DNA from: Yuukianura sp. NJ FZ-2021
Taxonomy: Eukaryota
Direction of reading: 5' to 3'
Length of the DNA stretch: 64,000 bases
Assembly: GCA_046563655.1 (NCBI GenBank)
Contig: CM102283.1
Span: 2,790,001 to 2,854,000 of the forward strand
Shown here: piece by piece, positions 1 through 58,300 of the stretch
Numbering within the stretch: position 1 is the first letter of the stretch
Layout of the letters: every line of letters starts with the position of its first letter
Notes under the pieces: generated by a model
Told to the model about the DNA's origin: nothing
Databases searched by the model: none
What the model saw: the letters and a program-made list of their open reading frames with translations, nothing else
Translations under genes and position numbers: made by a program

Positions 1-439
1 AAAAGTATGCTGATCTTGGATTATTGTTCTATTGTTAAAGAGTTAATCGGTAGCGTGGTTACGCGTAATCAAGATGTTAAGATAATTTTTTAATTTTTTA
101 ATCTAACAGCACCGTCACCGACCATGAATCAACTTTTTCTGAGTCATTTTCAAAAATTTAGTTTCGAAAAACGATGTTGCAGAGATTTGTCTTTTACGCA
201 CGAGTTTCCATATTGAAAATTAAAATTCACTTTAGCAATTTTTTGAAATTAAAAAAAAATGAATTTACTTCAAAATTTGAAATGCCAAAAGCGATTGAAG
301 GAGAGATGGATGAGTGCTGAAATACTTATCGGTTACGTTTAAAGAATTAATTAATGAAATCGGCGTTGTTTGTCTGTCTGTCTGTCTGTTTGCAATCTCG
401 TTTTCAAAATTTTGTTTTTTTTTTTAAATTTTTTTTTAG

Positions 440-2910
440 GTTGGAATGAGTGGTGATACTGGGAGTGACTTGTACGAAATTCCAGACGGGAAACCAGTAC
501 ATGTGACACCACTGCCAATACTGTCCAGCACATCAACAGTACCGGAGTGGCTCCAGAAAGTTGAGGCCCACCACAAACGAGAATCTCTGCTACTTGGCAA
601 GTATCCACCGATTATCCCACCATCTTCATCATCTCCACCAGCAGTAGATGAGAACGTCAAACCACAAGCTGCAGTTTACATTGAAAATGTACTTCTTCCC
701 ACAAGGGCAACTAAGGTAAGAAAAAAAAAGTTACCGTAAATGTTCTATTAAATAGCTCCGAAATGTTTACGCCCATCTATTTGGAGATTTGAACACGCAG
801 ACGCATAAAACCACGCATACCTTATTGTAGTCGAAACAAAGTCCAGCCATTATTTGAAACTTTACGGTAAAAAGTTAAGTTAAGGTAAAGGTAAGTTACA
901 ATTATTTTGGTGTGTAGTCATGTGTGACCTAATGGTTGAAGCAGAAAATTTCAGAACAAGTGAAACTGTCTGAGAATTTTTATTGTAGAAAAAAATTCAA
1001 AGTTGAAAGTACAACTTGAAAATCCTGTTTGAATTTTTCAAAATGTTGCAGAGCTTAATGGAATAATTTAGATACACAAAGTGTGAAATTTGAAACAGTA
1101 AAAAGCCATGTTCTCGAGAGTCGTTAAAACCATTAAAGTTCAATGTCGCAGTAAATTTCAACTTGATGAACTTTAAAGTTATAATTACAGTATAATTGGA
1201 CTTCTCAATTAAAAGGAGTAAAATTTTCATCAAAGAGAAAGTTAAGTTGCGAAAAGAGAAGATTCTCTGTAATTTTATTGTCATTAATCAAGTAGAGTAA
1301 TTGTTCTCTTAAGTAATTAATGTTTTGGAACAATCTTCACAAAAAATAGCCTAGCATAATTTAAACTAACGTTAAGGTTAAGGTTAACCTAACCGAGTTA
1401 ATATCCTAATCTTGCGTCCTAAAAACTTTAACAAAATTTTGAATTTGTTTAGTGGAAAAAATTATATTTGGTAGTTCACATTCTCTACATTTTTCAATTT
1501 TTTAAAAAATAGAACAAATAATTATTTATTGCTAATTTGCATATTTTTTTTGCACAGGATGACGATTCTAAAAACTTTATCGAAGCACTCAAGCGCAAAC
1601 TGAGTCAGAAGAATCTGTTGGCTGGTTTACCTGGACAAAACACCAACAGCAATAACGTCAACAACAATAATGTCAACAGCAGTAGTATCAACAACAACAA
1701 TGCAAAACCATGTTCTGGCTCTGGTAACAACAGAATCAACAACAATTTACCCAAGAGTCAAAGTCATGTTGAACTTGAGAGGCTCAGTTCAATTGAAACC
1801 GGTGAGTCATTCAACGATATTTGAATTTTTTAAATTAAAAATTTAAATTTTGCCGCCTTTTTCGTGTCACTGATTATACCGCCTCTGCTTCATCAAAAAT
1901 TCAAATAATCAAAGATTATAAACAAAAAAGTTTGGCACAGTGTGAGTCAGAACACAAAATTTAGACGAAGCCTTTGACTCATTCACAACTTTCCAAATTT
2001 TTAAACAGTTTTTGGGGAACCTGAAAATTTGAGTTAACAATGAGAAATTAAGATTAAGAACATGAACATCTGATATCAAAATTGAGTTTTTTTCAACTCT
2101 TGGTACGATGAAAGTGTTTCATGTTCTTCAAACAATTGAAATTTTCAAAACTTTTGAATTTTCTTGTAAGTAAATTGGTTACAAATACATTATAATTTTT
2201 TACAACTTCAAAACACTGTATGCCAGACGCCATTAACCTACCGCGCACGACTGCACTCAAATGACTTGACACAACGCTTTATTCCAACAAAAAAGTGACG
2301 GTCACGATCAGGGTGATGATGATCGTTTGCAGAACATAAATCTTTTCTTCCTAAAAAATCATAAATCATATTCAAAAAAAGTTTTAAAAAACTTTTTACT
2401 AGTTTTTGGTTTTGAAAAACTGTTAACTTTTCCCGTTTTTTACAGAGAGAATCAAGAAAATCAAAGAGTCCGTTCAAAAGTTTCCGTGGTTCTACAGAGT
2501 GGATCGAGCAAAAGCCGAGCTGATTTTGGAAAACTGTAAGTCAATTTCACAAACTGCAAAAACTTAACACAAAAAAAGAAAACAAAATTCAAAATTGTCG
2601 TTTTTTGAAAATTTTGATAGACAATGCCGACGGAGCCTTCCTCGTCCGAGAATGTTATCACGGTGGACCAGACGTTCCGTTTACTCTAACAATTCGCTAC
2701 GCTCTGCGTCTGTTTCATATTCAAATTCGCGTTAGGCCTGACGCACACTTTGCACTTGGGAGTGCAAAGGTCAACGAAATGAGATTTGGGTCTATCCAGG
2801 AAATGATTGACACTTACAGGAAAACGGCACTGCAGCTACACACTGCCGGAAAGTATTTTGGTGAAACTAAACTCACTAATCCACCAATAGTTTACTCTTT
2901 TTCTAAATAA
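440..2910 (+). CDS. SH2-domain adaptor protein (BLNK/SLP-76-like); 5' part may lie upstream of the window
   Basis: Exons about 440-715, 1559-1801, 2446-2535 and 2621-2910. The spliced C-terminus PWFYRVDRAKAELILEN.NADGAFLVRE...PFTLTIRY..RLFHIQIR...FALG...F.SIQEMIDTY is an SH2 domain. An N-terminal DLYEIP tyrosine motif and a Pro-rich region fit the SLP-76/BLNK architecture. Confidence 0.75.
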
Positions 2911-3310
2911 GTTTTAGAAAAACAGAAAATTTTAGAACAACTTTTTAGAAAATGAAATTCTCTGGCCAAAAGAAGGCTGCTTTTTTTAAACACTTTTTGT
3001 ATCATAAAGTCCCAGTTACTTCACTTTTTTCAATTTTTATTTTCAGAACAAATTTTGATTTTAAATTGTTTAAAAAACGCTCTGTATATTTAAGCTTTTT
3101 TGTTCAATGTTTCTTAAACTTTTTTCTTAATGTTACCAAAAGAAAAGTAAATTAAACGTAATCGGTCATGAATAATTTCGGTGAAATTTTATTCAAAATC
3201 ACAATTCAGAAAATTCATTGAACGTTTTCACTAATTTTTTAAATTAATTAAAGTAATGACAAGTTTTTAGAAAAGTAAGTAAAATGTTTAGGACAATAGG
3301 CATTACAAAA

Positions 3311-4618
3311 TCATTCCCAGACTTGGGGCAACTTGAGACAATAAGCTTGGAGTGACTCTTGAAAACTTGATAGAGGTCGCATCGTGGTCTCCGGCATTGG
3401 AATTTTAAACGTTGGAAGAAAAGAGCCGGGAATTTTGACGACCTTGACTGCAGCAGCGTAGAAAATGTCATATGAGAGGGCCAATGGAAGTGTAGCGGCG
3501 GTAAAAATTTTGTAAATTTTGAATTGTCGGAGTTTCGCTCGCAAACTTTTCGCGTCAGCCGTAATCGCTTCTTCGAAAACTTTCAAAAATGGTTCTGGAA
3601 GTTCACGCCCTTCTGCTTCCGTAAATGCTTGAATTAACTCACACTTTCGACAAATCCAGTCCAGCTGATCGTCGTCGTCAATGTTGTTCAGGAATCCGTC
3701 GGCGGGAAAAGTTTCGTCACATGATTCCATGACGTCACATGACTCCATGACGTCCATGACGTCATATAACTCTGACGTGTCACGTGACTCTGACGTATCA
3801 CGTGAGTCTGACGTATCACGTGACTCGGAATACGTCATCGGACGACGACAAGGTTCACATTTGATGAAACCGCGGCGTTTCAAATATCCCAAAGCATCTG
3901 AATATCCCGCGTGGCAAATGCTGGCCAGTACTTCTGGTCCAGGCGGCATAATTGTGTGACTCAGACGCACAAAATTTTTTCTTGAGATTTCAAGCGAAGT
4001 GTGATTAAAAGTCATGATGACCCACGGTGACAAGCTTGGACCATCGCGTGGACAAATGTCTGACTCACCACAGAACGGACTCACAGTAACTGTAGACTTG
4101 TTTTGAATCAGCTGATTCCCGCCTGTTGAAAACCCACCGTCAATGTACCTCTCACCGCGGAATCTGGGTGGGACCAACCCGACGAAAAATGGAATCGTCA
4201 CGGCACAAATGAGAGCGTCAATAAATTCGGCACGAGAGTTGAATTCCGAAAAGACTACTTTTTGCATGTCACGGACGCGGGTCATTGCTATGAAAACTTT
4301 TCCGGATACTAGAAGATGAACGTCCGGTGGGAGACAGGATTCGAGATGCTGGCGGACACTTCCAGCGACGTCACTTGAGGGACTCAGAGCACCAATCACT
4401 TTGTTTCTTGTTGCCACACAAGTTTGGATCCACATTTTGGCGCCATCGGGAATTGGAATTCCAGCGACCAAGAAAGTACTTGCGAGGGCACCAGCACTTG
4501 ATCCGGACACTGTGTTTAAAAATTGTGGAACATAGTGTTTGAGACACGCAGCGACTCCGAAGTGGTACATTCCCAGGAAACCACATCCAGCAAAGGAGAA
4601 GTTCACTTCTTCTGACAT
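3311..4618 (-). CDS. Patatin-like phospholipase / triglyceride lipase (PNPLA2/brummer family), single coding exon
   Basis: Motifs NFSFAGCGFLGMYH (oxyanion loop), GSSAG (GxSxG nucleophile), RYIDGG (catalytic Asp) and TVSPFCGESDICP. Confidence 0.92.
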   Translation of the reverse strand: MSEEVNFSFAGCGFLGMYHFGVAACLKHYVPQFLNTVSGSSAGALASTFLVAGIPIPDGAKMWIQTCVATRNKVIGALSPSSDVAGSVRQHLESCLPPDVHLLVSGKVFIAMTRVRDMQKVVFSEFNSRAEFIDALICAVTIPFFVGLVPPRFRGERYIDGGFSTGGNQLIQNKSTVTVSPFCGESDICPRDGPSLSPWVIMTFNHTSLEISRKNFVRLSHTIMPPGPEVLASICHAGYSDALGYLKRRGFIKCEPCRRPMTYSESRDTSDSRDTSESRDTSELYDVMDVMESCDVMESCDETFPADGFLNNIDDDDQLDWICRKCELIQAFTEAEGRELPEPFLKVFEEAITADAKSLRAKLRQFKIYKIFTAATLPLALSYDIFYAAAVKVVKIPGSFLPTFKIPMPETTMRPLSSFQESLQAYCLKLPQVWE

Positions 4619-5783
4619 TTTCTGAAGGTCAAAGGTCAATCTTGAATGTTAAAGGTCAAAGGTCACCTCTGGAATTTTAAAGGTCAACTCGCTGAGAAGT
4701 TATTTCACTTGTCCCAAATATGACAAATTTGTTGTGTTCGAAGTTTTGATGTGTGAATCTGAAAAAGCAAAAGGCAAAACAAAAATTTTGAAAATCGAAT
4801 GTTTTGAATTTTTAAAAACTCGTCGGCAAGGCGCTAAAAATAGAAGTTTCCAACCTACTTCTTTTTCTACAGGTGGAGTTTTTGAAGTGGGTTTTTGAAG
4901 TGAATGAAATTCAAGGTTTTGTGTGAAGAACAATAGAGTGATTAAACCATATTTTGTTTAAAGTTTAGTTAAAGTGGAAAAATCAAAATTAAAAGTTAAC
5001 TAGATAACTTCAACAAGTTAAGTTCCTGGTTAAGCCAAAGCATCACGAGCACAAAGCAACTTTTGTTATTTTGTCAAACTAAAAAAGTGGACTAAAGGGC
5101 AAAGACACTTGAGTGAAAAGTGAATCAAACAGTTGATGCCACACGAACTTTTTTAACCACCGCTATAAATAGTTAATTGTAAATTATATTTAAATTGTAA
5201 TTAAATAATTAAATAGCAGTTCAACTTAAATATTTAATAACACTGTAATTATGTAATTGGCTACTAGAAAATAGCAGGCCTTACCTGTTGGAAATGCTAA
5301 ACTAATGTACTGGAAGTGTAATAAAAATGAATTATAAAAATTTCGAACAAAGGCTTTATATAAAACTCTCTTCTTAGTTAGGTGCTTGCTGGAAGAATTT
5401 TCAAAGCATAAAAAGTTAATTGAAAAGTAAGTGGAAAAAATATGATTGGAACAATGAGATTTTCACGATATGACTAAAAGCTATAAAAAATATTTCGTTC
5501 AGAGCGTTTTTGGTAATTGTTCATGCAATTTTCATCACCTTCACTCTGCTGCAGGTGAATCCACTTCGAAACAAAGGAAACTTTGCTGGAAAACACGTCA
5601 ATACTTTCAATGGATTTCCATTTTTTTTTTCTTGAGAATTTCAACTTGCACAACCGAGAATGCAACATCAACAAAGTAAGTTGTTGAGAACCTGTTCAAG
5701 AGTTGGCTCATTGTAAGTATTTTTTTTCAAAAAGTGAAATAAGTTTTTGAAATTTTCCATTCCAAGGTTCTTTGTTACGAAAC

Positions 5784-8700
5784 TTTTTATATGTACAAAT
5801 GGCGCAGACTGAAATGACGCAGCTGAAACCTCGTGCCAATTTCCAGTAGAAGAGACTTATCTGGAATCCTTGGTCATCAAATTGCTAAAACTCAAATATC
5901 AAACACATGTACACACAACATGTTACTTTACGCACAAACAAAACATCATACTTTTTTGGAACAAATAATTAGCACTTTAATGAAACACAATCACCTGCCA
6001 AAGGCAGGTTGGGAAAAGGAGTAGAATTTATGTTAGGTTATAGTATGAATAACTCATAGAGATCTTTCCCTGAGGGTAAGCTTCCCAAGATTGAGCAGGA
6101 GTTACCGCGTTGAACAGCAAGACTTATTCGTTGTAGCAAAAAGGCCGTAGCTCGTTTATCTCCAGATGCTTCTGACAGCCGATGTCCAATTTGTTTCAGT
6201 AGACGAAGGCCTTCGGATCCGAATACACCTGTAGTCTCGACGGCAATGATGGATACGATGAAGCGAGATTCTAGGTCACGATAGAGATGATGCTTGTGTG
6301 TCTCTGCTAATTCGGCTGCATGACCATAGTGGGAAGACGACGTCGAAAGGTAGGAATTGGCAAAGGTGTCACGGCAAGTGAAATCCCAGGTGAGGCAGCG
6401 TCCAGAGCTCCAAGGAATAAGCGTTACGCCGTCTGGCCGTTTACCATCTGATCTACAGCAACCGACAGGTTCTTTAATTGACGGAAAACCGGCGGATTGT
6501 AACGATCTGAAGATGATGTCGTTGGCTGCGTTGTGACGAGAGTGTCTTCCGGCGCTACGTTTACAGCTTAGGCCATGGAGGCCGTTGCTTGATACCGGAG
6601 CACCACATGAGCAGATATGAGGTTGGCATATATCAGCTCCTAGGCGGAGGGCACAAGATATCCTAAAAGATTCGTCCGAAAGTAGAGTTCCAAGTTGTCC
6701 AGAGGGAATTGCGTGTAACCAATCTCCCGAATGTGGTGCAGCGGCAGCCAGTAGTCTTGCTTTGTCGATAAGAGTTGAAGAGTTCTGGAGAAGAGAAGAA
6801 GAAATTTGCTTGAAGACTTGAATTTCCCAGAGGTTTTGTGATTTTTCGTCCTGGGGAATGACAAAGCCCAATTGAGACCAATTGAGTAAAGCCATATCCA
6901 TTGAATTGTCCAAAGGTGACAGGGAGGACGGAAGAAATGTAGAAATTAGCTCCGCACAACTATGAACTGATGCCAAAAATGAGTATGTAGCGCAGTCCTT
7001 AGCGTGGCGAACTCCTAATCCGCCCAAGTTCACCGGTAGACTTGACTGAGACCAAGCGTGCGAAGATAAAGTAGAGTTGAGAATCGATTCCATCACTGCA
7101 CGTAGCGCACAGTCGTATGCATCGAGAAGATCAGTTTCCATAAACGAAGGAGCACATCGGAGGAAATATAGAAGTCTCGGGGTTGAAATTGAAGCTCGAA
7201 GCAGGTAGAACGCGATGTGGGCTGGTAAATCCGACAACTTGGATGAGAGTGACTTAAAATTCTCTGTTTTGCATTTGAGAATCCGACGAGACGATTCTTT
7301 GAAAAGAGGCGCTCCCAAAAGTTCAGCTTGATCAGATTCAGGAAAGATGATGTCAGGAGAAACAGAATGGAATGATTGGACGATTGAGCGGGATTCATCT
7401 GCGTCTGCGCTTAGGATGATGGCTTCACATTTCTTCAGGTTGAGTTCTAATCCAAACGAAGAGGCTTCTCTTTGGATGTACTTGAGATTTTCGAGAACGA
7501 CCTCCGGAGTATCGGCAATCGTTGCGTCGTCCAAATACCAGATGTTGAAATCAGTGGTTAGTGAGGAGGCCAATTGGTGAATGGTTAAAGCAAAAAGAGC
7601 AGGACCAAGGGGATCCCCCTGCTGCACTCCTAGTTTTGATTTGATGCAAGCAGAGTCGTAGTAGAGATCCGATTCATGCAAATAAGCTTCAGAGACGAAG
7701 TTGTAGACGTCGGGAAGTAGAGTCTTCACAATGTCCAGCATACGGTCTCTTCGAACTACATTGAAGGCATTGCGGAAGTCCATCTTTAGTAGAACCTTGG
7801 CAGAGACATGGTTGGCATTACAGAAGATTCTGGCAGCGTGGGCGACGGCTTCAGCACCATTCTTGATTCCAACTCCAACTTGGATTGGGCTTAAAGATGA
7901 AGTAATGATATTCAACGAGTGAGATAGAATAAGTTTAGACACGAGGCGTCTCCACGTAAGGCCAATTGCGATAGGGCGAATGCCTCCTTTTTCTTTTGGA
8001 TTGCTAATAACGTTGCGCCGAAAAAAATTCGTCTCACTTCATCGGGAAGAGAACCATTTGTGATGAAGTTACACAATCCAGAAATTGATGATAGAAGAGC
8101 TGCTCCTTCATCTCCTGACGACTTTGAAGTTAGTTCCTTTAGAATCTGTGGTCGAAGGGAGTCCAGACCTCCTGCAGATCCATTTGGGAATGACGAGATG
8201 GCTTTGATGATGTGACGATGTTCAAAGATAACCTCAGATCTCGGAGGTGCCGCAGGAAACGAGGTTGGTAGAGGATGATCGGGATGCAACTGTTGCAGAA
8301 TTTCCAAAGTATTTGAGTATTTGGCGGCTATGCAGTCTTCGGAGACAAGAATACGAACTGCACCACGTATATCCCCGTCGGCTAGTTTAGATTGAATGAC
8401 CTTTGAGGAATTGCGGTGATGTGAGGACGGATTATTGCGATGAGAGAACTGCTTGAATTGATGATGGGAGATGTTTGCAGGCGACCCAGAAGTGATACGG
8501 CTAGCGTTTGTCTTCACCCATTTGGTAAGATTTGTGACAGCATCTTCTTTTGACGGGATAGGGAGAACTTGGTACGGGAAGTAGAATAATTTTGCCCAAG
8601 AATCTGTAGAGTTCTGCTCGATTGCTTGGTCGATGATGGTGGACAGGGCAGAGGCGGTCGTTCGTCTTGCTCCTTTTGGAATGTGTTTGAGTGTGGACGT

Positions 8701-9260
8701 AGATTTTCTCAAGTCAGCAAGCTTTAGCCCAAGAGAAGTTGTAGAGATATCCTCATTGGGAGAGGCGGACCAAGTGATGCCGAAGTAAGATTGTTCAGAA
8801 TGTTTGCGTCCGCCGGCTCGTGTTTTGGTAATGGATGGAAAAGCTTTTAATAGTTTCAATCCAATTGTCGCGTCGGTTAAAGGTTTCATCTTCACTTCAG
8901 AGCAAAATGAATGGTATTTGTCTTTTAGATCTTGTTTCTTGATCAAAGCTCCAGAAGCCTCCTGAAGGTTGTTCTTGATCCAGTCGTCAGTTAGTTTCGA
9001 AATTTGAGATTTTCTTAGACACCCAGTGGATGACGTAGTAGATGACGATGATGTAGGTGATGAACCACTGAACTCCAATCCGCAGTCATCGGATGATGAC
9101 CCGATTCCGGGGTTCTCCGTGGTTGTGTCCAGGGTGTTATCGCAAATCAGATTGATCGTTGAATTTGCTGGAAAATTGAGTTGGATGTTTGTTTCACCAA
9201 ACATCATACTTGTTTTTTTTTATAAATACACATATTACAATATAATATTATATTATAATT
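5784..9260 (-). mobile_element. Non-LTR retrotransposon, CRE-like clade (RT plus restriction-like endonuclease), one frameshift near 7990; boundaries approximate
   Basis: ORFs 7912-9207 and 6038-7942 join by a -1 shift into ...AIQKK/GGIRPIAIG... RT motifs are KMDFRNAFN, GVQQGDPLGP, WYLDD and LP..LGGLG. A zinc knuckle (CSCG...HGLSC), RHN and the RLE motifs RPDG...WD...AE..K follow. A short A-rich 3' end lies near 5784. Confidence 0.9.
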
Positions 9261-9284
9261 AACATTCTTTTACAAAATTTTCAC

Positions 9285-9298
9285 GTTACCGTGACAAC
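9285..9298. promoter_or_regulatory. RFX X-box-like motif upstream of CCDC61
   Basis: GTTACCGTGACAAC matches the X-box pattern GTTNCC-NN-RRNAAC and lies about 200 bp upstream of the CCDC61 ATG. Confidence 0.6.
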
Positions 9299-9497
9299 CA
9301 GAACGTTAAAAAAACATGCTGGTATCAAATGTATTTGGGAAAAGTTGTTAAAACTTTGCCATGCAAATTTGTGGTTTTGAGTAAAAAATTTTTTTGGGTA
9401 AAACTCAAGTGTTTAGCAATATTGCTTTTGTATAGGATTTGATACGAGTCAAAAGTTAAAGCAATTCTGAGATTTGGCGCGCTTGAGAATTTTTAAA

Positions 9498-12400
9498 ATG
9501 GAGAAAGCTAAAGGAGTGACTAATTCTGTTGTGAGTACTTGGACGTTTCGAGATGGAGAGCAATACGTAATTTCATTGGAAGTTACAGAGAATCCAAAAG
9601 CAGTTGCAATCCAAATTGCAAATAAAATCACTTCCGAAGAATGGAGTTGCCACTATGATTCCAAATGTGAGTTTCAAATTTCCCTCCAAAAAAAACTAAA
9701 AGTTTTAAATCTTTGACCTTTGACCTTGACTTTCTCTTTGTCCAAATCAGATATAGAAGAGCTGAGTCAGAGAACTGGAAACTACAAAACTTTTGACATT
9801 TTTATTGCTATGATCAAATCTGCTCTGCTCAAGGTAAAATTTCATAATTTTTGAAAAACTCATTTTCACTTTTCATTCAAAAATGAAAAATGTGAAAAAA
9901 ACAATGAAGATGAAGATGATTAGGAAGGAGTGGTAGGAATTGGCTTCTTTATCCTTGATGAATCAAGTTAGTGAAATTAATTACACTGTAATTCAGCATT
10001 GAAATTTTACGAATCCGCATTGCTTTGCAATTCTTCACACCCAGACGCGTGCTTCTTTACAAAAATTTCACTTAACGATTCCCATTCATTTCAAAAACTG
10101 AAAACATGAAAATCATAATAATAAAAATGAAATCCATCCTACTTTTGACAGAATCTGAGCAAAAGTGATAGTTTGTGCTTCTGAAATTATGATCGAGAGG
10201 AGTGGTTGACTTTGGCCAGACGATCTTCTCGTGCTCAAACTTCAACTTTAAGTGCAAAAGTGGGTCACATGATTGATTCAAACTGCTTTAACAAGTGCGC
10301 GCCAACTTTCAATTTCGATTTAAAAAGTTAACTTGAATTATAACCTTGTCAGTTGTGATTAATGAGATTCGACTAAAAGAGGAAAAGGAGAGATTAAGTT
10401 AGGTTGATTGGATTAACAAAAGAAATTATAGGCAGTGTCTGCACATGAGCAGACTTAAAATCTTACACGTACATAAGTACACTATGTTATACATTCATAT
10501 TAATATATTATAAATAAAGTAATAAATATAAATATAGATTAAGTTTTTTGACAAAATTTTTTGATATTTTCAGAGCACAGAGTCGGTTGAACTTGACTTA
10601 ATGACGTACGAAGACTTGAAGGCGCTGAAATCCAAGCGATTCAAAAATGGCTCCAAATTTGAATTCGCTTCGCCTTCAAAAATTGCCGACTCTTCTGCTA
10701 CAGTAGATGCAAATTCAAATCCGTCAAATCACTTGTTAAAACGCAAGTATCTGATAGTGAAATACGTGGCAGAGTTTGACAGGTAAAAGGTCAAAGGTCA
10801 ATGACCCCAAAAACTAATCAGGTCAAAGGTCAAGGTCATTGACCTTTATTTGTTTCAGTGTCCATTATCCACTGGCCTTGAGTCATACTAAGGGCCCTGA
10901 CCCCTTCATAATGGAGCAGCACATTAAGAAACTGCAAGGAGAGGTCACGTATCTGCGAACGACCAATCAGGAGCTTGTTGACAGTTTGAAAACTCTTGGC
11001 TTTGACTCGTCGAGGCTTGAAATTCAAAATGGGCGCCAAAATTTAAATTGTGGCGGGAGTGCACCTAATTTTGAAATTTCGAATCTTCTGGAAGCCATTG
11101 AGTCCTTGGAGAGAAACTGTGCCACAGAGAGAATGGAGCACTTGAAGGAAATGGAGACCCTGCAAGGGGAAAATTCAATCTTAAGGGACCAGGTACTTAA
11201 AGGGGTCAAGGGATTCCCTTAAGCTTTTTTTAAGAAAGAAAGTCCCGTTTTGTTTTGAAAAAGAGTTTTTGTTTCTTGAACTTTCGAAATTTCATTCAAG
11301 GATTCTTTTGAATTTTAAAAACGGTCAAGGTTGGGAAAGTTTTTTTTGAAAAAAAAAATTATGATCAGACGCCAGACCGCATTGACGGCCGTCTGCGGTG
11401 TGAAATAGCCGCGAGGGAAAATTTGAAAATGCAGCACGCGTTTATTTGGTGTGTACAAAACAATAGAAAGTTTGACGAACCAATTGTTACAATTTGAAAA
11501 AAAAAGATGTGAGAAAATTTTTCAAAATGAAAATTTTCAGGGCCAATTTTACTTTATGAAGTTTGAATGTGGCGCTTTTACTTTTTTTTTTGCCCGGCGG
11601 TGGTCAGCCTACTAACCGAAATAATCACAATAAGATCAGTCACGTAAATGAAACCACATGAGATTAAATTTTGCAACTGATATTCTATCTGGTCACTTTT
11701 GAATGTTCCCACGCATGCCCAAAATTTTACCAAAAACAATTAGTTTTTGAAAAAGTATGAAAATTTCAAGCATGAAATTTCGAAAACCGAAACACGACAG
11801 ATTCAAAAACTGAATCACACGTTCAAAAAACTGACAAAAAAGTCGAATCGCCGAAAAAATTTGACTTCTCAAAGAAAACTTTATAGATGCTGGTCGGAAA
11901 TACGAAAAATGGGGCAAGAAAATGTTGAAGTTCAAAATCTTGAAAACTTGGAGCCAGATATAAAAAGTAGAGGCACGAAAATTTGAAAAACCCTTTAACT
12001 GAAACTGCATTTTTAAGATTTCAGCGCTTCAGCGATCAGAAGAAGAGCTGAACATGCAGATCACGAGACTGGAGAGGATGAGTATGGGTTACGGAGTGCG
12101 TCGTCAGCAGTCGGGGCAATCGTTCGGCACTGTTCGGGAAAGTGTTCGGACTCAACGACCGTCACGTGAGCGTGATCGTGCTTCAAGCGACATGCGTAGC
12201 AGACACAGTTCGAGTAGTTCCGAATTTCGACGGAAACTTACGACTGCAGTCAAGAGTACAAGTACTGCACAGCAAACGAATTTGCCTGGCGTCAGAAATC
12301 GCTCCAGAACGCTGTCACCAGCTCCTCCTCCTAAGTTCAATCCAACGTCTTACGTCCGTGAAAAAAAGCAGCGCCAAGACCAAATTGCTCAACTCAGGTT

Positions 12401-13124
12401 TCAAAATTTTTGAACCTTTTTCGAAATTTCAATTTTTGAAATTTGTCATTCCGTATTTGTTGAACTTAGACTGGCCGAAATCCAGTCCAACTTTCTTAGG
12501 CACGGTCGTCAACTGCCAGAAAGTTCAAGTCCGCGTGGCAATGTTTTGTCGTCACCGAGATTCGTCAGGATCAATGGCGGTGAGATTAGCATGAGTTTGA
12601 CCGTGACTGAAGTCATTGACCTTTGACCTTATTCCAGTTCCTAACAATACTGAACGTCGTTTGGCTCTACGGAGAGAACGCAGTTTGAGTCTGGAGCGAC
12701 TTCGGTCACAAACTGACATGTCGGAGCGTCCGGCAGTTTCCGGAGACCGTCGCGGGCGCAGTCGTGAACGTCGTCCGTTTACAAACGTCGGAGTTCAAAC
12801 AAAAACTTTCAAACCAAAACCAAGACTGACTAAATTTGGAGTCACTGGACGAACGACAACAGTAGCTCCTGTAGTGAGACAGTCTCAGAGAACAACTACT
12901 TCTACTAGTTTTGGAACCAAAGACAAAAGTATTAAATATAACTGATATATTTATGTTGATTTAGTATATTTAATTGAGTTTATTTAAATGATATAGACGC
13001 TGGAAGAGCAACAGACTTCGAAGGATCGCTGGAAGCTTTGCAAGCCTACTTAGAAGATACGAATCAAAAACTAACAGCCTACCAAAACTTTGGCAAAATC
13101 TACGACGGAGCTACCAACAAATGA
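9498..13124 (+). CDS. CCDC61: Coiled-coil domain-containing protein 61 (SAS6/XRCC4-like head, centriolar)
   Basis: Spliced head domain EEWSCHYDSKYIEELSQRTGNYKTFDIFIAMIKSALLK-STESVELDLMTYEDL...KRKYLIVKYVAEFDR-VHYPLAL, then a coiled coil, the FNPTSYVREKK motif and a C-terminal LEALQAYL. About 8 exons. Confidence 0.88.
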
Positions 13125-19172: not shown

Positions 19173-22100
19173 ATGGACGTCATTATACCCGACGTGAAGC
19201 CGGAGATTGACGAGCTGTCTCCGTCTGGCAGTGGACAAGTAGAGGAACATGTGAATGCTGGACAAGTATCCAAGGCTCCAGCAAGTAACAACAACACAAT
19301 CAAAACTTTGTCGGCGCAACAAGTGAAGGCTTTACAACTACAACATCAGAGTCAGATCAATACGACGTCAGGGTCGGGTGGTGGGACGGTGTACATCAAC
19401 AGTGCCAGTGGAACCCTCTTGGCCAATCCAACTCCACAGCCACAATCTTCGGTTAGAACTTCAACAATACTGGCAACAACTCCTGCCACCCCGGCTTCAA
19501 TTGTTGCTTCCTCGGGCAAGCAACAGTTGCAGTCAATGGCCAAATCAACTGGGCTCAATATTGTGCATGTCACATTACCTCAGGTGGAACGAAATTTTTA
19601 AATTTTGAAACCAAAATTAGTAACTTTTTCGAAAAAGTTTCTAAACTTTTCTGCATAACTTTTGTTTTTTCGTTCTCAATCAGTTTTTCTTTCCAAACTT
19701 AACTTTTTTGTGTTTTTTTTAACTTTACTTTTGGTTTCTTTTTATTTTTCTCCACCTTTCGCTTTTGTTTAGTTTCATGCATGAGCTCTTGTTGTTTTCG
19801 TTACGTCAAAATCAATATCCGTTTGGCGCCAAAGTCAAATTTGACGTCAAAATGGATATCAATGCTACGTCAAATTCGATGCGGTGTTAAGCCATTGACA
19901 TGTTTTGTTGTCGAAAGTGCACTACTGAAATTAGATTTGTCACTTCTGATGAGTTCGGATGACGCGATGATGACAAGACAAACAAACACAAAATTCGTCA
20001 TTTTTTTTTTCAAAAAACGCATTCACTCGTTCAAGAGAAATTGACAATGAAAACTGAAATTGCCAGACCATGAATCGCTGAGCTGATTGATGCTGAATGC
20101 TGAGCTCAACTTAAAAAAAAATTAAAGCAAACTTTTATTAAAATTCAAAATTCCATACCACTTGTGTTTAGTATACAGAAGTTTCAATTTTTAAGTTTCT
20201 ATCTGCTTCTGCTCTTTTGAGTTCTGTATTTTTTAACAACAGAAAAACACAGCTTTTTCCTCATAATTTTGATTGCTTAGAGACAAAATTTAAAGTTTAT
20301 ACATACGCTGAAAAAGTTCGAATTTTGTCATTCTGTTCGATTAGAGATAGGGGTCGAAATTCGGATTTTAACTTCGGATTCAAATCCGAATTTTTGACGA
20401 ATCCGAATAATTCGGAATTCGGATTTGACATCATGCGAATTCGGATTCAGACGAATTTGAGACTTAAATAGATGTAGGCGCAAATTTAAATTTTAAGAGC
20501 AAGAAATTGAAGTAACTGAAGAACCCCAGAATTTAGCAAAAAAAGAACAAACGCTTACGTACTGAACTGGAATCAAAACTCGATCAGGCATTAGATGACA
20601 TCTCAAAGCGTGCTCATCGATTCAAAACAAAATCTGGTGAAAAGGACTTAACGGCAACAATTAAGAAGGAAATGACCATGTTCGAAAATGGTGGTAACCG
20701 GGGACTACATTTGGAGCTCTGCTACAATTTCCTAAAAATTGTTCCACCAACAACAGTTGAAGCGGAGAGATCATTTTCGTCTGCCGGATATTTTTGTAAC
20801 AAAATACGATCACGCCTAAGCGATGACACTTTAGACAAACTCTGCTTTCTTCGTTCATATTTTCAGGTTCTCTCATTTACTGAGAGTCGTAGTGTTCACT
20901 ACTGAGTTTCAATACTTTTTACTTTAGAAAACAAGCTCAACATAAACGGGTAGTTAGTGTTCAATTATAAACAAAAGTGTTATTTTTTCATTACTGTAAG
21001 GGCGAATTTCTTAAAAAAAAATGAAATCCGAATCCGAATTCGGATTTTGCCGAGATGAAATTCGGATAAATTCGGAATTCGGATTTGGGCAAAACCTCGA
21101 CGAATTTCGACCCCTAATTAGAGACCAGTTAAGCAGCATTCAGCATCAGCTTCAGTAGATTCAGCATCAGCATCATCTATCATCAGTAGATTCAGCATCA
21201 GCATCATCTATCATCAGTAGATTCAGCATCAGCATCATCTATCATCAGTAGATTCAGCATCAGCAACATCTATCATCAGTAGATTCAGCATCAGCATCAG
21301 TAGATTCAGCATCAGCATCAGTAGATTTAGCATCAGCATCAGCATCATCCATCATCTGTAGATTCAGCATCAGCATCATCATCAGTAGGTTCGGCATCAG
21401 TATCATTACATTCAGCATTAGTAGAGACGGTAGCAATCAATGGTTGTTTACTTTCCGAAAGTTTTAGTTAAAAATTTGATTCAAAATTTCCAAGTTGTAA
21501 GTTTGTGCCGATGCTTTTATTAAGTTAAATTTGACGTTTGGACAAAAATAGCCTAACGAAAAGTAGTAGACGCAAATGTGAAAGAGCTGTTTGCTGAAAA
21601 GTGTTTTGCAAGAAAAAAAAGAGTCCGTACCTAGTTTTAACCAACAACGAGTTTGAAATGACGTCAATCTTTTTGGTTTGGTGGCTAGTGCAACTAAACA
21701 TGATCTGACTGATACTACAAAAAAAAAGTTAAGTGTGTGTGAGCCACCCCAGGTTTTTAGTTTTTACGTCATCCGGAAACTAAGTACGTTTGATAATCAG
21801 TGAAAAGTATTCGAGAAAAAGTCTAATTACAAAAATACAACTGCTATAGTCGACATAGTGCTAAAAGTCTAATAGTGAAGTGCTTTCGATTCAATTTGCA
21901 ATAAGAAAGAAAGTTTTTGAAGTCAGTAGGCATTTGGAGGTTGTTTACAACAGACACGCTCCATAAAAATTAGGTTTTTGTATTTTCTTATTACTTACGT
22001 CAAGGACCGTGTCATTGTGTATTTCATTCCATTCAACAAGTGCCATTTCTAATGAAACACAGTAATTAACACTTTTACATAACTTCAACTTGGTCATTCC

Positions 22101-30045: not shown

Positions 30046-30216
30046 ACCTAAGATGCGTCTTGTAGTCGAGGAAATACGGTATTTACCACAGTTCACGGTT
30101 CAATGACATTTTAAAAGTTTTTTTTTTTTTCAAAAATTAGATTTCATTATTTTCAAAACATTTGAGTTTACGAGTAAAAAAGAGGAACAACAATACTCTC
30201 ATTGCTAACTCCTGTT

Positions 30217-31160
30217 CATAGTTGTACTGTCTTTCGGCTTCCAGTCTTCACGGCTTCCGAAGAGAAACTACTGATTCGGATTCTAGTCTTCCGACTTCCG
30301 GCTTCCAAATATTCTCTTGTCTTCACGGCTTCCGACTTCGCGCTTCCAGAGAATGTTTTGTCTTCACGGCTTCCGACCTCCGGCTTCCAGAGAATTTCTT
30401 GTCTTCCAATCTTCCGGCCTCCGGCTTCCAAAGATTCTCTTGTCTTCACGGCTTCCGACTTCCGGCTTCCAGAGAATGTTTTGTCTTCACGGCTTCCGAC
30501 CTCCGGCTTCCAGAGAATATCTTGTCTTCCAATCTTCCGGCTTCCAAAGATTCTCTTGTCTTCACGGCTTCCGACTTCGCGCTTCCAGAGAATGTTTTGT
30601 CTTCACGGCTTCCGACCTCCGGCTTCCAGAGAATTTCTTGTCTTCCAATCTTCCGGCCTCCGGCTTCCAAAGATTCTCTTGTCTTCACGGCTTCCGACTT
30701 CCGGCTTCCAGAGAATGTTTTGTCTTCACGGCTTCCGACCTCCGGCTTCCAGAGAATATCTTGTCTTCCAATCTTCCGGCTTCCAAAGATTCTCTTGTCT
30801 TCACGGCTTCCGACCTCCGGCTTCCAGAGAATGTTTTGTCTTCCAAGGCTTCCAGAGGATGTTTTGTATTGCAGTCTTCCGGCTTCCGGAGGATATTTTG
30901 TCTTCCGACCTCCGGCTTCCGGAGAATCTTTTGTCTTCACGGCTTCCGGCTTCCAGAGAATCTTTTGTCTTCCAAGCTTCCGGCTTCCAAAGAATATTTT
31001 GTCTTCCAACCTTCCGGCCTCCGGCTTCCAAAGAATATTTTGTCTTCCGGGCTTCCGTCTTCAAAACTTCCGGAAGTCGGAAGAATGAAGCCGGAAGACG
31101 GCTTCATTTGAAGAATCTTCCGGAAGACAGTACAAGACTGCGTCCTATTTGGTGACTATG
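30217..31160. mobile_element. Non-autonomous element filled with a higher-order CGGCTTC tandem array
   Basis: Inverted repeats TTGTACTGTCTTTCGG (about 30222) and CCGGAAGACAGTACAA (about 31120), with CATAG...CTATG outer ends. The interior consists of ~35-42-bp subunits arranged in ~120-bp higher-order repeats. Confidence 0.65.
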
Positions 31161-45113: not shown

Positions 45114-45397
45114 CCTACCGACCGTAATTTCGATAAATCAAGTCTAATTAATTAATTAGTCAATTAATCTCTAACCAACGTTCAAATTAAATCAAAATTC
45201 AATTCTCCAAACGATTTACGAGTTCCCAAAATAACAACACAGATGATTTTCAAATTTTGACTTCCCACGCTTTTAATTTTCTCACTTTGCCCCAAAGGTT
45301 GCATGCCTTCGAATAAATGGAGCTCCGCATACTTGTCATGCTAGTTGGGGCTTCGCCCTATTCCCGTTCTATCTTCCAAATATTTTTAATCCACCGG

Positions 45398-45411
45398 TTA
45401 CTATGGCAACA
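45398..45411. promoter_or_regulatory. X-box-like motif in the divergent TIPRL/MFS intergenic region
   Basis: GTTACTATGGCAAC is a close match to the RFX consensus. Confidence 0.5.
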
Positions 45412-55310: not shown

Positions 55311-58300
55311 ATGGGACAGCGGCCTTCATCCAACCCTCGACACGACACAGTCATTCTACACTCAAGCAACGGAATTAACGATTTGCTTCAGCGTATTCCC
55401 CTACTTGGAGGAGTGGAAATGGAATCTCATCCTAGACAAGGCAGACGGTCAAGTTCAAGTGACGAAAATTCATTATATGAAGTGGAGATTTGTGACTCAA
55501 AGGTACTTTGGGCTAAAAGCGACAGATAAGATACGCAATTCGGAAGTGTTGACATATTGAATTATTAATTAACTAAGCATTGATTTGTTGTTTGTAGGAA
55601 GCACCTCGTCGAAATGGATCAATCATTCACATTCAACTCCCACCTCCACAACCTCCACGAAAACAATTTCCAGAAGAACGAATAAAGACTGTCGTTGCCT
55701 TCATATGGCTAGCTTTCAACTTTGTGATTACCACCGTCTCTCTGGCTCTGACTCACGAGAGATTACCGAATCCAAAAGAAGTTCAGGCCTTGCCGGATAT
55801 AATCCTCGACAACGTTACGACCATAGACTGGGCCCTTACAGTCTCTGAAGTGATTCTCTCCATGGAGACTTTTGTCGCTTTCTTCATCCTGGCAGTTCAC
55901 AAGCATAGGTAAGCCTAACCTAACTATGCACTCTAATTTGATTAAAGTGAAAACCACTGTCGTTGCATGCCGAGAGACTATTAAATCTGGAACTTGCACA
56001 AATGGGGTTGTTTGTGGAATTGCCCATGCAACTTCCACTAGGTTTTTCACTTTAAACTTCCCGCTAGTTTTTAGGTTCAAATTTACCTCAATTTTAGGCT
56101 CCTTAGCCCCTCCCTCTACTACGCAGTTAGATTTGTCTTTTGTTCTGTTTTGCTCTGTTAGCCCTAAGTCGATCTTAGCACGTTGTTAACAGAAGTACCA
56201 TGCTTTCAGTCTGCTAAGTACTCGCTCTCTCACCTTTCAATCAACAATTAATTGTTTCTCCATACTAATTAACTTTCTTTAATTAAACGTTGGGTTAAAA
56301 GCCCTGATTAATCTGAACTTTCAGATTCTAGTTTTGCCTCAAAGTTATTCCTAAAAAGTTCAGTTTGAAAGTTACTGAACATTGTTTTTCAGATTATCAA
56401 AAATTAACTCTAATTAAAGACTCAGTGACTCCTTATCAGTGAAATGGCCTCTACTTCATCCTCCGACGTAGTGAGCTTCGGTTCTGCGACAGCTGGACTC
56501 GGTCATGTCAGGAAAACCATCGTTCGATTCCAGACGTCTTTGGATCCTGCAACATGGAAACCGGCCACTGTTCCCGAAGTCACCAGTAAGGAGAATCGAC
56601 TAAGCGAAATCAAAACTGAGTTCAACTACTGGAAACGTCATCTAATCTGTGCCAGTACTTCCTCCCAATCATTGGATGACATTGAAGATACACTCATCGA
56701 GTGTGAAGATCTTCTGGAACAGGTACAATTCACCCTTTGCACTGTTAGTGATTCAATTTGTAAACATGACGAGGATCAACCGGGTCCTCCAAGAATTCAA
56801 CATCACCCTAATTTTGAGTCTGAGTTTAAGCTCGAGAAAACTAAACCACCGACGTTTAATGGCGATTACACCGATTGGCAGAACTTCTCGGATCTCTTCC
56901 AGGCTGCCGTTATCCAGAATCCCAGAATTTCCGGTGCTCAAAAGCTCGTCTATCTCAAGAATTCACTGACTGGTGAAGCTGCGTCCATCGCTTCTTCATT
57001 CCCTCTCAATAACCTCAGCTTTAACGAAGCATGGGAATTGGTCGAAAAACGATTTAACAAAAAACGAGAAATTGTTTTTTCGCACCTAACTAAACTATTC
57101 TCTCTTCAGTCAGTTTCAGATACTTCCAAAGGAATCCTGAAACTGGTCGACACCATCAACCAGTGCCTACGTTCCCTCAAAATTCTCAACGTTGATGTCA
57201 CCCATTGGGACATTTTCATCGTCTTCTGGGCCCATTTGAAACTCGATCCAGAGACCAGAAGACAGTGGTTACTGACCACCGATGATGAACTTCCTACTCT
57301 TCCCCCGTTCTTGGAGTTTCTTGAGAAAAGAGCCAACGCCCTTACTCCAACTTCATCATCGTCATCAAAGGGAAAGTCAACCACTTCAATGTCCACTGCT
57401 CATCACACTACTACAGCACAAACCAAAACCAAGTTCGCATGTCCACAGTGTCATGACAAGAATCACCGGATCTTCAGATGTCCGGATTTCCTAAAGTTAT
57501 CTCCTCGCGACCGATCGGCTGCCGCCCGCGAGAAAAAACTGTGCACCAATTGTTTGCGCTCAGATCATCAACTTCGTGAGTGTAAAAGTGAGGGGGTGTG
57601 TGCCAAATGCTCTAATAGGCATCACACTTTTCTACACTTCGACACTCATGTCCCACCTCTTCAGCCGAAACCAAACGGGTCAACTTCCGGCCCATCTTCA
57701 AAAAATTCTTCAGCGGCAAGAACGACACCCTCAACATCCGGCTCAAGCGCATCTCCAGACGAACACGTCGAATCCCATCATTCGTCTTCTACGACTACCA
57801 CTACCAAGGTGGTTCTGATGGCGACTGTCGTCGCAAGAGTCATTGACCAGAATGGGGACCGTCAACTCTGCCGTGTATTTCTGGACCCCGGCTCCGAATC
57901 CAACTTCGTCTCAGAAGCTTTCGCCGATCGTTTCAAGTTGAAGCGGCAGAAGTCATGCATCAGCGTGACTGGAATTGGAGGATCATCCGGAGGCTCTACC
58001 CGTGGTGTGGTAAACTTCAAATTACTCTCACGGTTTGATAATTTTGTTTTTCCAGTCAGAGCTCTCATCTTGCCTCGTCTCACTGGACTTCTTCCACGCT
58101 CCAACTGTCAGGGGTCATTTCCTCACTTGGATGGTCTTTCTCTCGCTGACCCGGAATTCAACATTCCATCATCAATCGACATCTTACTTGGAGCAGAGGC
58201 GACTGCTCAAGTACTCCTGCCTGGACTGAAAATGGGACTCCCTGGAACTCCTACTGCCCAAGACTCTCGTTTCGGCTGGTTCCTGACTGGCACGTCCCCA

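Follow-up and report, generated by a model that had tools for sequence, protein, structure and literature searches.

An RFX winged-helix domain in a lineage of restriction-like endonuclease retrotransposons of springtail-like arthropods

Can a retrotransposon of the long interspersed nuclear element (LINE) type carry the DNA-binding domain of RFX transcription factors as part of its own protein, and if so, to what end? The question is raised by an element copy in a 64,000-nucleotide (nt) stretch of the genome of Yuukianura sp. NJ FZ-2021 (GenBank assembly GCA_046563655.1, contig CM102283.1, positions 2,790,001 to 2,854,000 of the forward strand), which we call the window and by whose own positions all features are given. 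LINEs with a restriction-like endonuclease (RLE), such as R2, serve as the model of site-specific retrotransposition, and work is under way to engineer them for inserting genes, for which it is central to know how the target is set by their N-terminal DNA readers. According to the available parts of two papers, N-termini with zinc fingers and Myb domains are the rule in early-branching LINEs, and in R2 this slot reads the target DNA (PMC5678591, PMC11204384); the first of them, in the part available, places a zinc finger/Myb/-1 region (ZF/Myb/-1) in all early-branching LINEs (PMC5678591). An earlier, sequence-only reading of the window had proposed that a CRE-clade retrotransposon bears an RFX winged helix at its N-terminus instead. 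We find that the copy is an RLE-type element of a young, high-copy family and that the RFX domain is shared by its lineage, in which it occupies the position of the usual finger.

The RFX domain and the element that carries it

The RFX winged-helix DNA-binding domain lies at 8770..8988 on the minus strand, where it is supported by Pfam, by sequence matches in the PDB, by the predicted fold and by contig depth. The peptide singled out from the letters corresponds to residues 78-150 of a 435-residue open reading frame (ORF; minus strand, 9219..7912), in which PF02257 (RFX_DNA_binding) is the sole Pfam-A family, with an E value of 6.4e-11 and, at 43.2 bits, a score above the curated gathering cut-off of 27, covering profile positions 4-76 of 79. 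A 76-residue piece searched by itself matched the same family at E 3e-12. When the segment was compared with PDB sequences by phmmer, RFX5 (8zjr_M, E 9.8e-9) and RFX1 (1dp7_P, E 6.8e-5) were recovered, and all remaining matches had E > 0.2. A profile made from 13 element-borne RFX domains matched four distinct PDB sequences at E ≤ 0.01, among them RFX5 (6.3e-19), RFX1 (3.6e-17) and ARID2 (2.4e-5).

The predicted fold agrees with these assignments. An AlphaFold2 model, for which the input was a 17-row alignment of the window protein and its relatives, has a predicted local distance difference test score (pLDDT) of about 90 over residues 70-150, with structural elements in the order H-E-H-H-E-E. 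In a Foldseek search of the PDB, the top two structures were RFX5 (template modelling score, TM, 0.92; root-mean-square deviation, rmsd, 1.2) and the DNA-binding domain of RFX1 (RFX1-DBD; TM 0.90, rmsd 1.3); one match reached E ≤ 0.001, and everything other than RFX5 and RFX1 had a probability of at most 0.35. Ten residues of the RFX region are invariant among the six closest sequences. The wing consensus of the lineage, R-x-G-x-R-G-x-S-x-Y-x-Y-x-G-I, agrees with RFX1 and RFX5; of the conserved hairpin wing of RFX domains, R-x-G-x-R-G-x-S-K-Y-x-Y-x-G, the window copy itself keeps R, G, R, S, Y and G but has E-Q in place of the K-Y of RFX1. With the HMMER searches and the structure prediction run, the proposal of an RFX winged helix is thus upheld; the wing motif R-x-G-x-R that had been read in the letters is present as R-A-G-G-R, and the absence of a C2H2 finger, also noted then, is borne out in that Pfam finds no C2H2 family in the 435-residue frame.

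The element protein is not an RFX transcription factor, because Pfam shows the DNA-binding domain alone, followed by reverse transcriptase (RT), and reports no RFX activation or dimerisation region in the frame. It resembles the RFX factors (RFX1-3, RFX5/7, DAF-19) in the sequence, the fold and the R-x-G-x-R wing of the DNA-binding domain, but differs from them in that this domain is fused to an RT and an endonuclease and is present in many copies.

The copy itself spans 3245 nt on the minus strand (5954..9198), bounds that are drawn from depth steps, empty-site contigs and direct repeats; it is 5'-truncated, contains one frameshift and ends in a short A run. Its first in-element residues, 68 in number (8989..9198, minus strand), form a Ser/Thr-rich stretch that is in frame with the RFX domain, has no start codon of its own, belongs to no Pfam family and is modelled with low confidence (pLDDT 30-38). 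From the RFX domain the frame is open without a break into a conserved pre-RT region (8131..8691, minus strand) that runs from an LKHIPKGAR motif to GSAGGLDSLRPQILKEL and that, according to the alignments, is common to RFX-type and finger-type relatives. A second frame of 666 residues (8038..6041, minus strand) overlaps the end of the 9219..7912 frame and holds the RT (7313..7999, minus strand; Pfam RVT_1, E 8.1e-18, residues 14-242 of this frame), with the motifs GGIRPIAIG at 7961-7987, QQGDPLGP at 7601-7624 and WYLDD at 7526-7540. A pattern search located the core of the restriction-like endonuclease at 6383..6550 (minus strand), as GRHSRHNAAND followed by KRPD-x13-D; RH..N and KRPD-x13-D are the motifs by which the R2 literature defines the RLE. 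The pattern search also placed a CCHC zinc knuckle, C-x-C-x9-H-x3-C, ahead of it at 6563..6613 (minus strand), and such a knuckle of RLE LINEs is described in the part of PMC5678591 available. The stop codon (6038-6040) and a short 3' untranslated region ending in AAAA, both read from frame and sequence, complete the element at 5954..6040 on the minus strand. The single ORF of the family therefore has the order low-complexity N-terminus, RFX, pre-RT region, RT, long linker, CCHC knuckle and PD-(D/E)xK-type endonuclease. Because WYLDD, the CCHC knuckle and RH..N/KRPD-x13-D occur together and Pfam finds no apurinic/apyrimidinic (APE)-type endonuclease (Exo_endo_phos) in the element frames, we assign the element to the RLE-type non-LTR (long terminal repeat) retrotransposons, as had been proposed, with target-primed reverse transcription as its mode of insertion; a target-site duplication, 5' truncation and the lack of LTRs, which are the hallmarks of this mode, are all found.

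The state of this copy became clear from Logan contigs of four DNA sequencing runs (X1-X4; three from one sample, one under another organism label) that were aligned to 5700-9500. Word depth, which as a contig depth does not equal copy number, steps 10- to 200-fold in all four runs between bins 5827-5953 and 5954-6080 and between bins 9129-9255 and 9256-9382, with flank depths for X1 to X4 of 41-49, 209-309, 20-31 and 1.7-2.5 and in-element depths of 1572-27971, 2168-10614, 154-1270 and 9-162. In X1, 201 of the 509 contigs are at least 99% alike. The copy thus belongs to a young, high-copy family, of which tblastn finds one copy only within the window. Other copies do not share its frameshift, which falls in an A/G-rich run at 7988..7993 (minus strand) where the two frames overlap: at 7990, all of the depth in every run differs from the window by one base in length (4126.7/4126.7, 2559.9/2559.9, 604.9/604.9 and 80.8/80.8). 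Because all depth differs at this base, the frameshift is private to the window copy and the ORF of the family is continuous. The sequence-only reading had assigned the RFX domain to a separate upstream ORF; this no longer holds, as RFX, RT and RLE share one ORF that is split only by the private frameshift at ~7990.

The insertion is flanked by an exact 13-nt repeat, AAACATCATACTT on the plus strand, at 9199..9211 (element 5' end) and 5941..5953 (element 3' end), within a wider alignment of 9196-9215 with 5938-5957 that is identical at 18 of 20 positions. Contigs of the empty site join 5927 to 9199 in X4 and 5949 to 9213 in X3, and X2 has a loose end of the left flank before 9199. Since the empty-site contigs of X4, X3 and X2 carry AAACATCATACTT once, the repeat is a 13-bp target-site duplication, the element is bounded by 5954-9198, and the insertion is polymorphic, being absent from some chromosomes in the public runs. 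Both ATG codons from which the RFX frame seems to start fall within the duplication and are host sequence. Moreover, X1 and X4 show loose ends behind 9197, one contig of 1286 nt continues 353 nt beyond this point, and a hand translation of 30 letters past 9197 in other copies stays in frame and meets no stop codon. Because other copies run past 9197, the window copy is 5'-truncated; it is dead, but very young. The claim that the RFX domain stands at the N-terminus must therefore be given up, given the truncation, the host origin of the ATG codons and the presence of a PHD finger or a low-complexity repeat upstream of RFX in full-length relatives.

An RFX lineage and its finger-bearing sisters

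Relatives of the element protein were sought and found. Three of 24 longer homologues recovered by a word-indexed search (1075-1103 amino acids), one of them from Folsomia candida, combine PF02257 with RVT_1. A HMMER search of representatives at 50% identity gave 2408 matches at E ≤ 1e-3, and among the best 150 of these, 13 align from before query residue 100 and so span the RFX region. In the resulting set of 17 aligned sequences (the window protein, the three PF02257/RVT_1 proteins and the 13 HMMER matches), RFX is recognized at E ≤ 0.01 in 15 (best 2.6e-22), PHD in eight and RVT_1 in ten. A scan of metagenomes yielded 26 loci, nine of which match the element RFX profile, and Pfam confirms RFX in seven of the eight ORFs tested. 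Full ORFs of 1020-1117 residues are found among the relatives, and the named members are both from springtails, Folsomia candida (OXA58286.1) and Orchesella dallaii (CAL8107905.1); sequences with the RFX-RT-RLE architecture have thus already been public under automatic names. As judged from these sequences, RFX-RT-RLE is a feature of a lineage of springtail-like arthropods rather than a one-off fusion; that a lineage had captured the domain had been suggested from the single copy. Two further proteins among the relatives look anomalous: P0010 (Plutella xylostella) appears chimeric, with a fused glycosyltransferase family 4 domain, and P0007 (Folsomia candida) appears chimeric or truncated, starting at the last residues of RFX and ending in unrelated C2H2 fingers.

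Most full-length members carry a PHD finger upstream of RFX. In the full-length PHD- and RFX-bearing locus L002 it is of the ING type, matching ING3 at E 8.6e-14 and then ING4/1/2/5, Yng1/2 and Pho23; PHD fingers of the ING family read H3K4me3 (histone H3 trimethylated at lysine 4). L001, which is the nearest relative of the window element and which the tree places as its sister with support 100, lacks a PHD finger; from the first Met to RFX it has a Ser-rich tandem repeat of about 295 residues instead. At 344-1234 of L001, a unit of 14 residues, S-D-x-H-S-E-I-Q-D-S-A-x-S-I, is repeated in tandem some 15 times. A search of the ESM Atlas with the Folsomia N-terminus gave no usable match.

The comparison was widened to the 62 relatives in which 60 or more residues precede the conserved LRRxPKGAR motif. 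As a rule, the module directly before this motif is one C2H2-like finger, CPxCP...RGLxIH, and a PHD finger may lie upstream of it. Pfam assigned RVT_1 to 38 of the 62, PHD to 16, RFX to 15, UCH to three, OTU to three, SAP to one and several C2H2 models to one or two each. The N-termini of the wider RT/RLE group are plastic, as seen in P0016, P0057, P0061, P0065, P0070, P0110 and others, and one of the 62 has a BED-type finger. On alignment, RFX appears in the slot of the C2H2 finger, just upstream of LRRxPKGAR. The sister families (e.g., P0006, P0008, P0017 and P0043) have bodies 30-40% identical to those of the RFX lineage, share the placement of LRRxPKGAR directly after the DNA-binding module and, in several members, the upstream PHD, with OTU or UCH in some; they differ in having a C2H2 finger where the RFX lineage has RFX.

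A tree of the protein bodies suggests that this difference arose more than once. It was built from the part after LRRxPKGAR, with RFX excluded, as a quick LG+G4 analysis of 35 rows, and it leaves out 24 of the 58 proteins of at least 850 residues, whose start was missed by the motif pattern. All ten RFX rows fall inside one 18-row group (support of 97 in the SH-like approximate likelihood ratio test, SH-aLRT) that also holds the finger-bearing P0006/P0008, P0038 and P0012/P0014, and when truncated gene models are scored as unknown, the tree requires four or more module changes. The approximately unbiased (AU) test rejects a single RFX clade with p 6.2e-5, a result weakened by the fact that the RFX group was named after the tree had been seen. 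With the two types interleaved in the tree and a single RFX clade rejected, these data suggest that RFX and finger modules have been repeatedly exchanged or replaced between related elements.

R2 (R2Bm, avian and reptile) is among the closest described systems. Its one ORF, too, passes from an N-terminal DNA-binding module through a pre-RT region and the RT to a linker that holds a CCHC knuckle and on to an RLE at the C-terminus, and it inserts by target-primed reverse transcription; an R2 protein is also the sole solved relative, matched at E 2e-5 in the RT only. In contrast, R2 reads 28S ribosomal DNA (rDNA) through C2H2 fingers and Myb, while this element has RFX with or without an ING-type PHD, and the window copy is intergenic with a 13-bp duplication. 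Neither a 28S rDNA site nor a zinc-finger or Myb family, the marks of the R2 clade, was found. The CRE clade, proposed from the letters, is a candidate assignment for the element; trypanosomatid CRE elements reside in spliced-leader genes, this copy is intergenic and promoter-proximal rather than in a spliced-leader RNA gene, and Rfam detects no RNA gene (ribosomal, small nuclear, transfer or spliced-leader RNA) either in the window or in any of 20 related loci. CRE elements (CRE1, CRE2, SLACS and CZAR), HERO, NeSL/Utopia and R4/Dong share with it an RT, a C-terminal CCHC/RLE part and the lack of an APE endonuclease, but no RFX domain is mentioned in the examined portions of their published descriptions. 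N-terminal accessories vary among all these groups; in Utopia/NeSL they include zinc fingers, Ulp1 protease and RNase H according to the available part of one report (PMC4640811).

Other mobile elements have taken up host modules, too. Chromoviruses, for instance, carry chromodomain integrases. Ginger1 DNA transposons, as described in the accessible part of PMC2836005, carry PHD, Ulp1 and OTU, and are alike in having captured host chromatin- or DNA-reading modules. Both Ginger1 and the chromoviruses differ from the present element in belonging to transposase- or integrase-using classes, and none has RFX. A catfish L1-RFX5 isoform also unites RFX and LINE parts in one protein, but from what is given in the part of the paper available (PMC12129022) it is the converse case, in which an L1 ORF1p-derived exon was added to the RFX5 gene of the host, giving a domesticated isoform that is not mobile. 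No description of a retrotransposon-encoded RFX domain was found in the literature, a search whose scope did not extend to Repbase, Dfam or the RLE survey of Fell et al. 2025, and the listed papers that name both RFX and non-LTR elements are, by their titles and the beginnings of their abstracts, on other matters. As far as searched, an RLE LINE lineage with an RFX winged helix in place of the customary zinc finger is therefore undescribed, and the earlier remark that the architecture was not a familiar one stands, the repeat catalogues Repbase and Dfam aside.

What the RFX domain may do

We consider it probable that, taken as a whole, the observations are best explained by a young copy of an RLE element whose lineage owns an RFX domain, uses it for tethering to DNA or chromatin and has exchanged it with fingers. 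In this scheme, the RFX domain, helped by the PHD finger where one is present, would tether the element ribonucleoprotein to DNA or chromatin; the endonuclease would then nick nearby AT-rich DNA and prime reverse transcription. RFX would thereby stand in for the zinc fingers and Myb of R2-type elements.

Beside the limits of contig depth and of the body tree given above, several points weigh against this reading. The targeting role of the RFX domain is purely a prediction. At the wing, the K-Y of RFX1 is replaced by E-Q in the window copy and by D-Y in its nearest relative, so that specificity may differ or binding may be weakened, as far as can be told from the residues. Not every aligned relative conforms: P0030 has no recognisable RFX similarity (a degenerate domain), P0161 has a finger instead, and P0037 (20.6 bits) and P0109 (25.7 bits) score below the Pfam gathering cut-off. 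Finally, the two insertions with defined junctions, those of the window and of L002, share no obvious target beyond AT-rich flanks.

This last point, together with the departure of the subclade wing from the RFX consensus at two positions, is what speaks for the foremost alternative, namely that the RFX domain is real and owned by the element but selects no target. It might then serve the element's own expression or its conflict with the host: it could, for instance, bind the element's promoter or 5' region, compete with host RFX factors, or hold the protein on its template through non-specific binding of nucleic acid. Some relatives do carry accessories without a DNA-reading role (UCH in three, OTU in three and SAP in one of the 62). 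However, RFX sits in the exact slot of the C2H2 finger, which in R2 reads target DNA according to the available parts of PMC5678591 and PMC11204384, and no X-box-like motif with at most one mismatch lies within the element (5954-9198). We regard this alternative as unlikely, while granting it real weight.

Could the tethering be more specific than this? The copy lies in AT-rich DNA between genes, with 287 nt separating it from the downstream ATG (9498) that opens a plus-strand gene, and the host flank between them contains a palindromic X-box-like motif, GTTACCGTGACAAC, at 9285..9298, with one mismatch to GTNRCCNNRGYAAC on either strand. The motif is 74 nt from the duplication, on the side of the element 5' end, and about 200 nt upstream of the ATG. 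The exon that begins there (9498..9716, plus strand) is the putative first coding exon of a CCDC61/VFL3-like basal-body gene and has no PDB match of its own; a later exon, 10565-10786, matches only CCDC61 chains in the PDB (3/3 matches, best 6hxt_A, E 4.9e-4). With at most one mismatch allowed, the X-box pattern has 10 matches at seven sites in the window against 3.36 expected, a number reached by none of 100 shuffles, and the chance that a random point in the 64 kb falls within about 90 nt of one of the seven sites is ~0.02. At L002, where two PHD-bearing elements lie head to head (2-432, minus strand, and 512-4098, plus strand), the spacer of about 70 nt contains AGCAAC-N11-GTTGCG, that is, two RFX half-sites. 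One may thus imagine that RFX reads X-box-like DNA and, together with an ING-type PHD, steers integration to active X-box promoters beside ciliary or basal-body genes.

Against such steering stands the record of the other loci. Eight were available, the window and seven RFX-bearing loci with upstream sequence, with 5' ends defined in two cases; a motif with at most one mismatch occurs within about 100 nt upstream in two of the eight (the window and L004), and the 5' end of L004 is undefined. There is no full X-box in the 511-nt upstream flank of L002. Because the case is suggestive but thin, we hold steering to X-box promoters to be doubtful. Further candidates were set aside: the match in L006 is inside the coding region of a finger-type element, those in L001, L008 and L009 are inside ORFs, and that in L016 is ~815 nt away.

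The remaining explanations survive less well. The proteins might be domesticated host genes, members of a transcription-factor family that acquired an RT, and the database names, which are those of ordinary predicted proteins, would fit this. Yet the 13-bp duplication, the empty site, the tens- to hundreds-fold excess of depth, the 5' truncation and the near-identical contigs are those of a mobile element, and L002, too, has a flanking repeat, of 12 nt, which is the sole convincing one among the seven loci with both ends; domestication is accordingly very improbable. Last, this copy alone might have captured the RFX segment from a host exon, or the segment might be a chimera of the assembly; this has next to no probability and is refuted by the relatives (RFX in 15 of 17), the metagenome ORFs (seven of eight), the contig depth (RFX bins 8748-9001 as deep as the RT bins in all four runs) and the unbroken frame.

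Related enzyme bodies with a C2H2 finger or an RFX domain at one position, apparently swapped more than once and often preceded by a histone-reading PHD finger, amount to a natural experiment. Should RFX direct integration, the element would be the first winged-helix-guided LINE, and its DNA-binding module would be naturally exchangeable. As the family is young and of high copy number in an arthropod genome, its insertion-site preferences can be read directly from assemblies.

Other features of the window and of related loci

The gene next to the insertion extends over 9471-12945 (plus strand) and looks CCDC61/VFL3-like, with coiled-coil and Arg/Ser-rich exons following that at 10565-10786. 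X-box-like sites are about three times as frequent in the window as in shuffles, and the sole perfect match, GTTGCCATAGTAAC on the minus strand, is at 45397-45410. In L002, the minus-strand element is frameshifted between its start and the PHD and runs off the contig, and ATCGACA(A)TG surrounds both starts.

The host is a pancrustacean arthropod: the best named matches of its patatin-like ORF, at 31-49% identity, come from a crab, a mayfly and two springtails (Allacma and Folsomia). In the ESM Atlas this ORF falls into generic PNPLA clusters only. At 20537-20905 (plus strand) there is a fragment of the C-terminal dimerisation domain of a hAT transposase (Pfam E 5.1e-5), and at 30178-31155 a tandem repeat of about 1 kb, open in several frames on both strands, in a GC-richer and strongly AT-skewed stretch. 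An apparently intact BEL/Pao LTR retrotransposon occupies 55763-62222; its terminal repeats are indicated by duplicated ORF text at ~55763-56189 and 61877-62222, and its one gag-pol frame of 1798 amino acids (56429-61825) contains DUF1759, Peptidase_A17, RT, an integrase zinc-binding domain and DUF5641.

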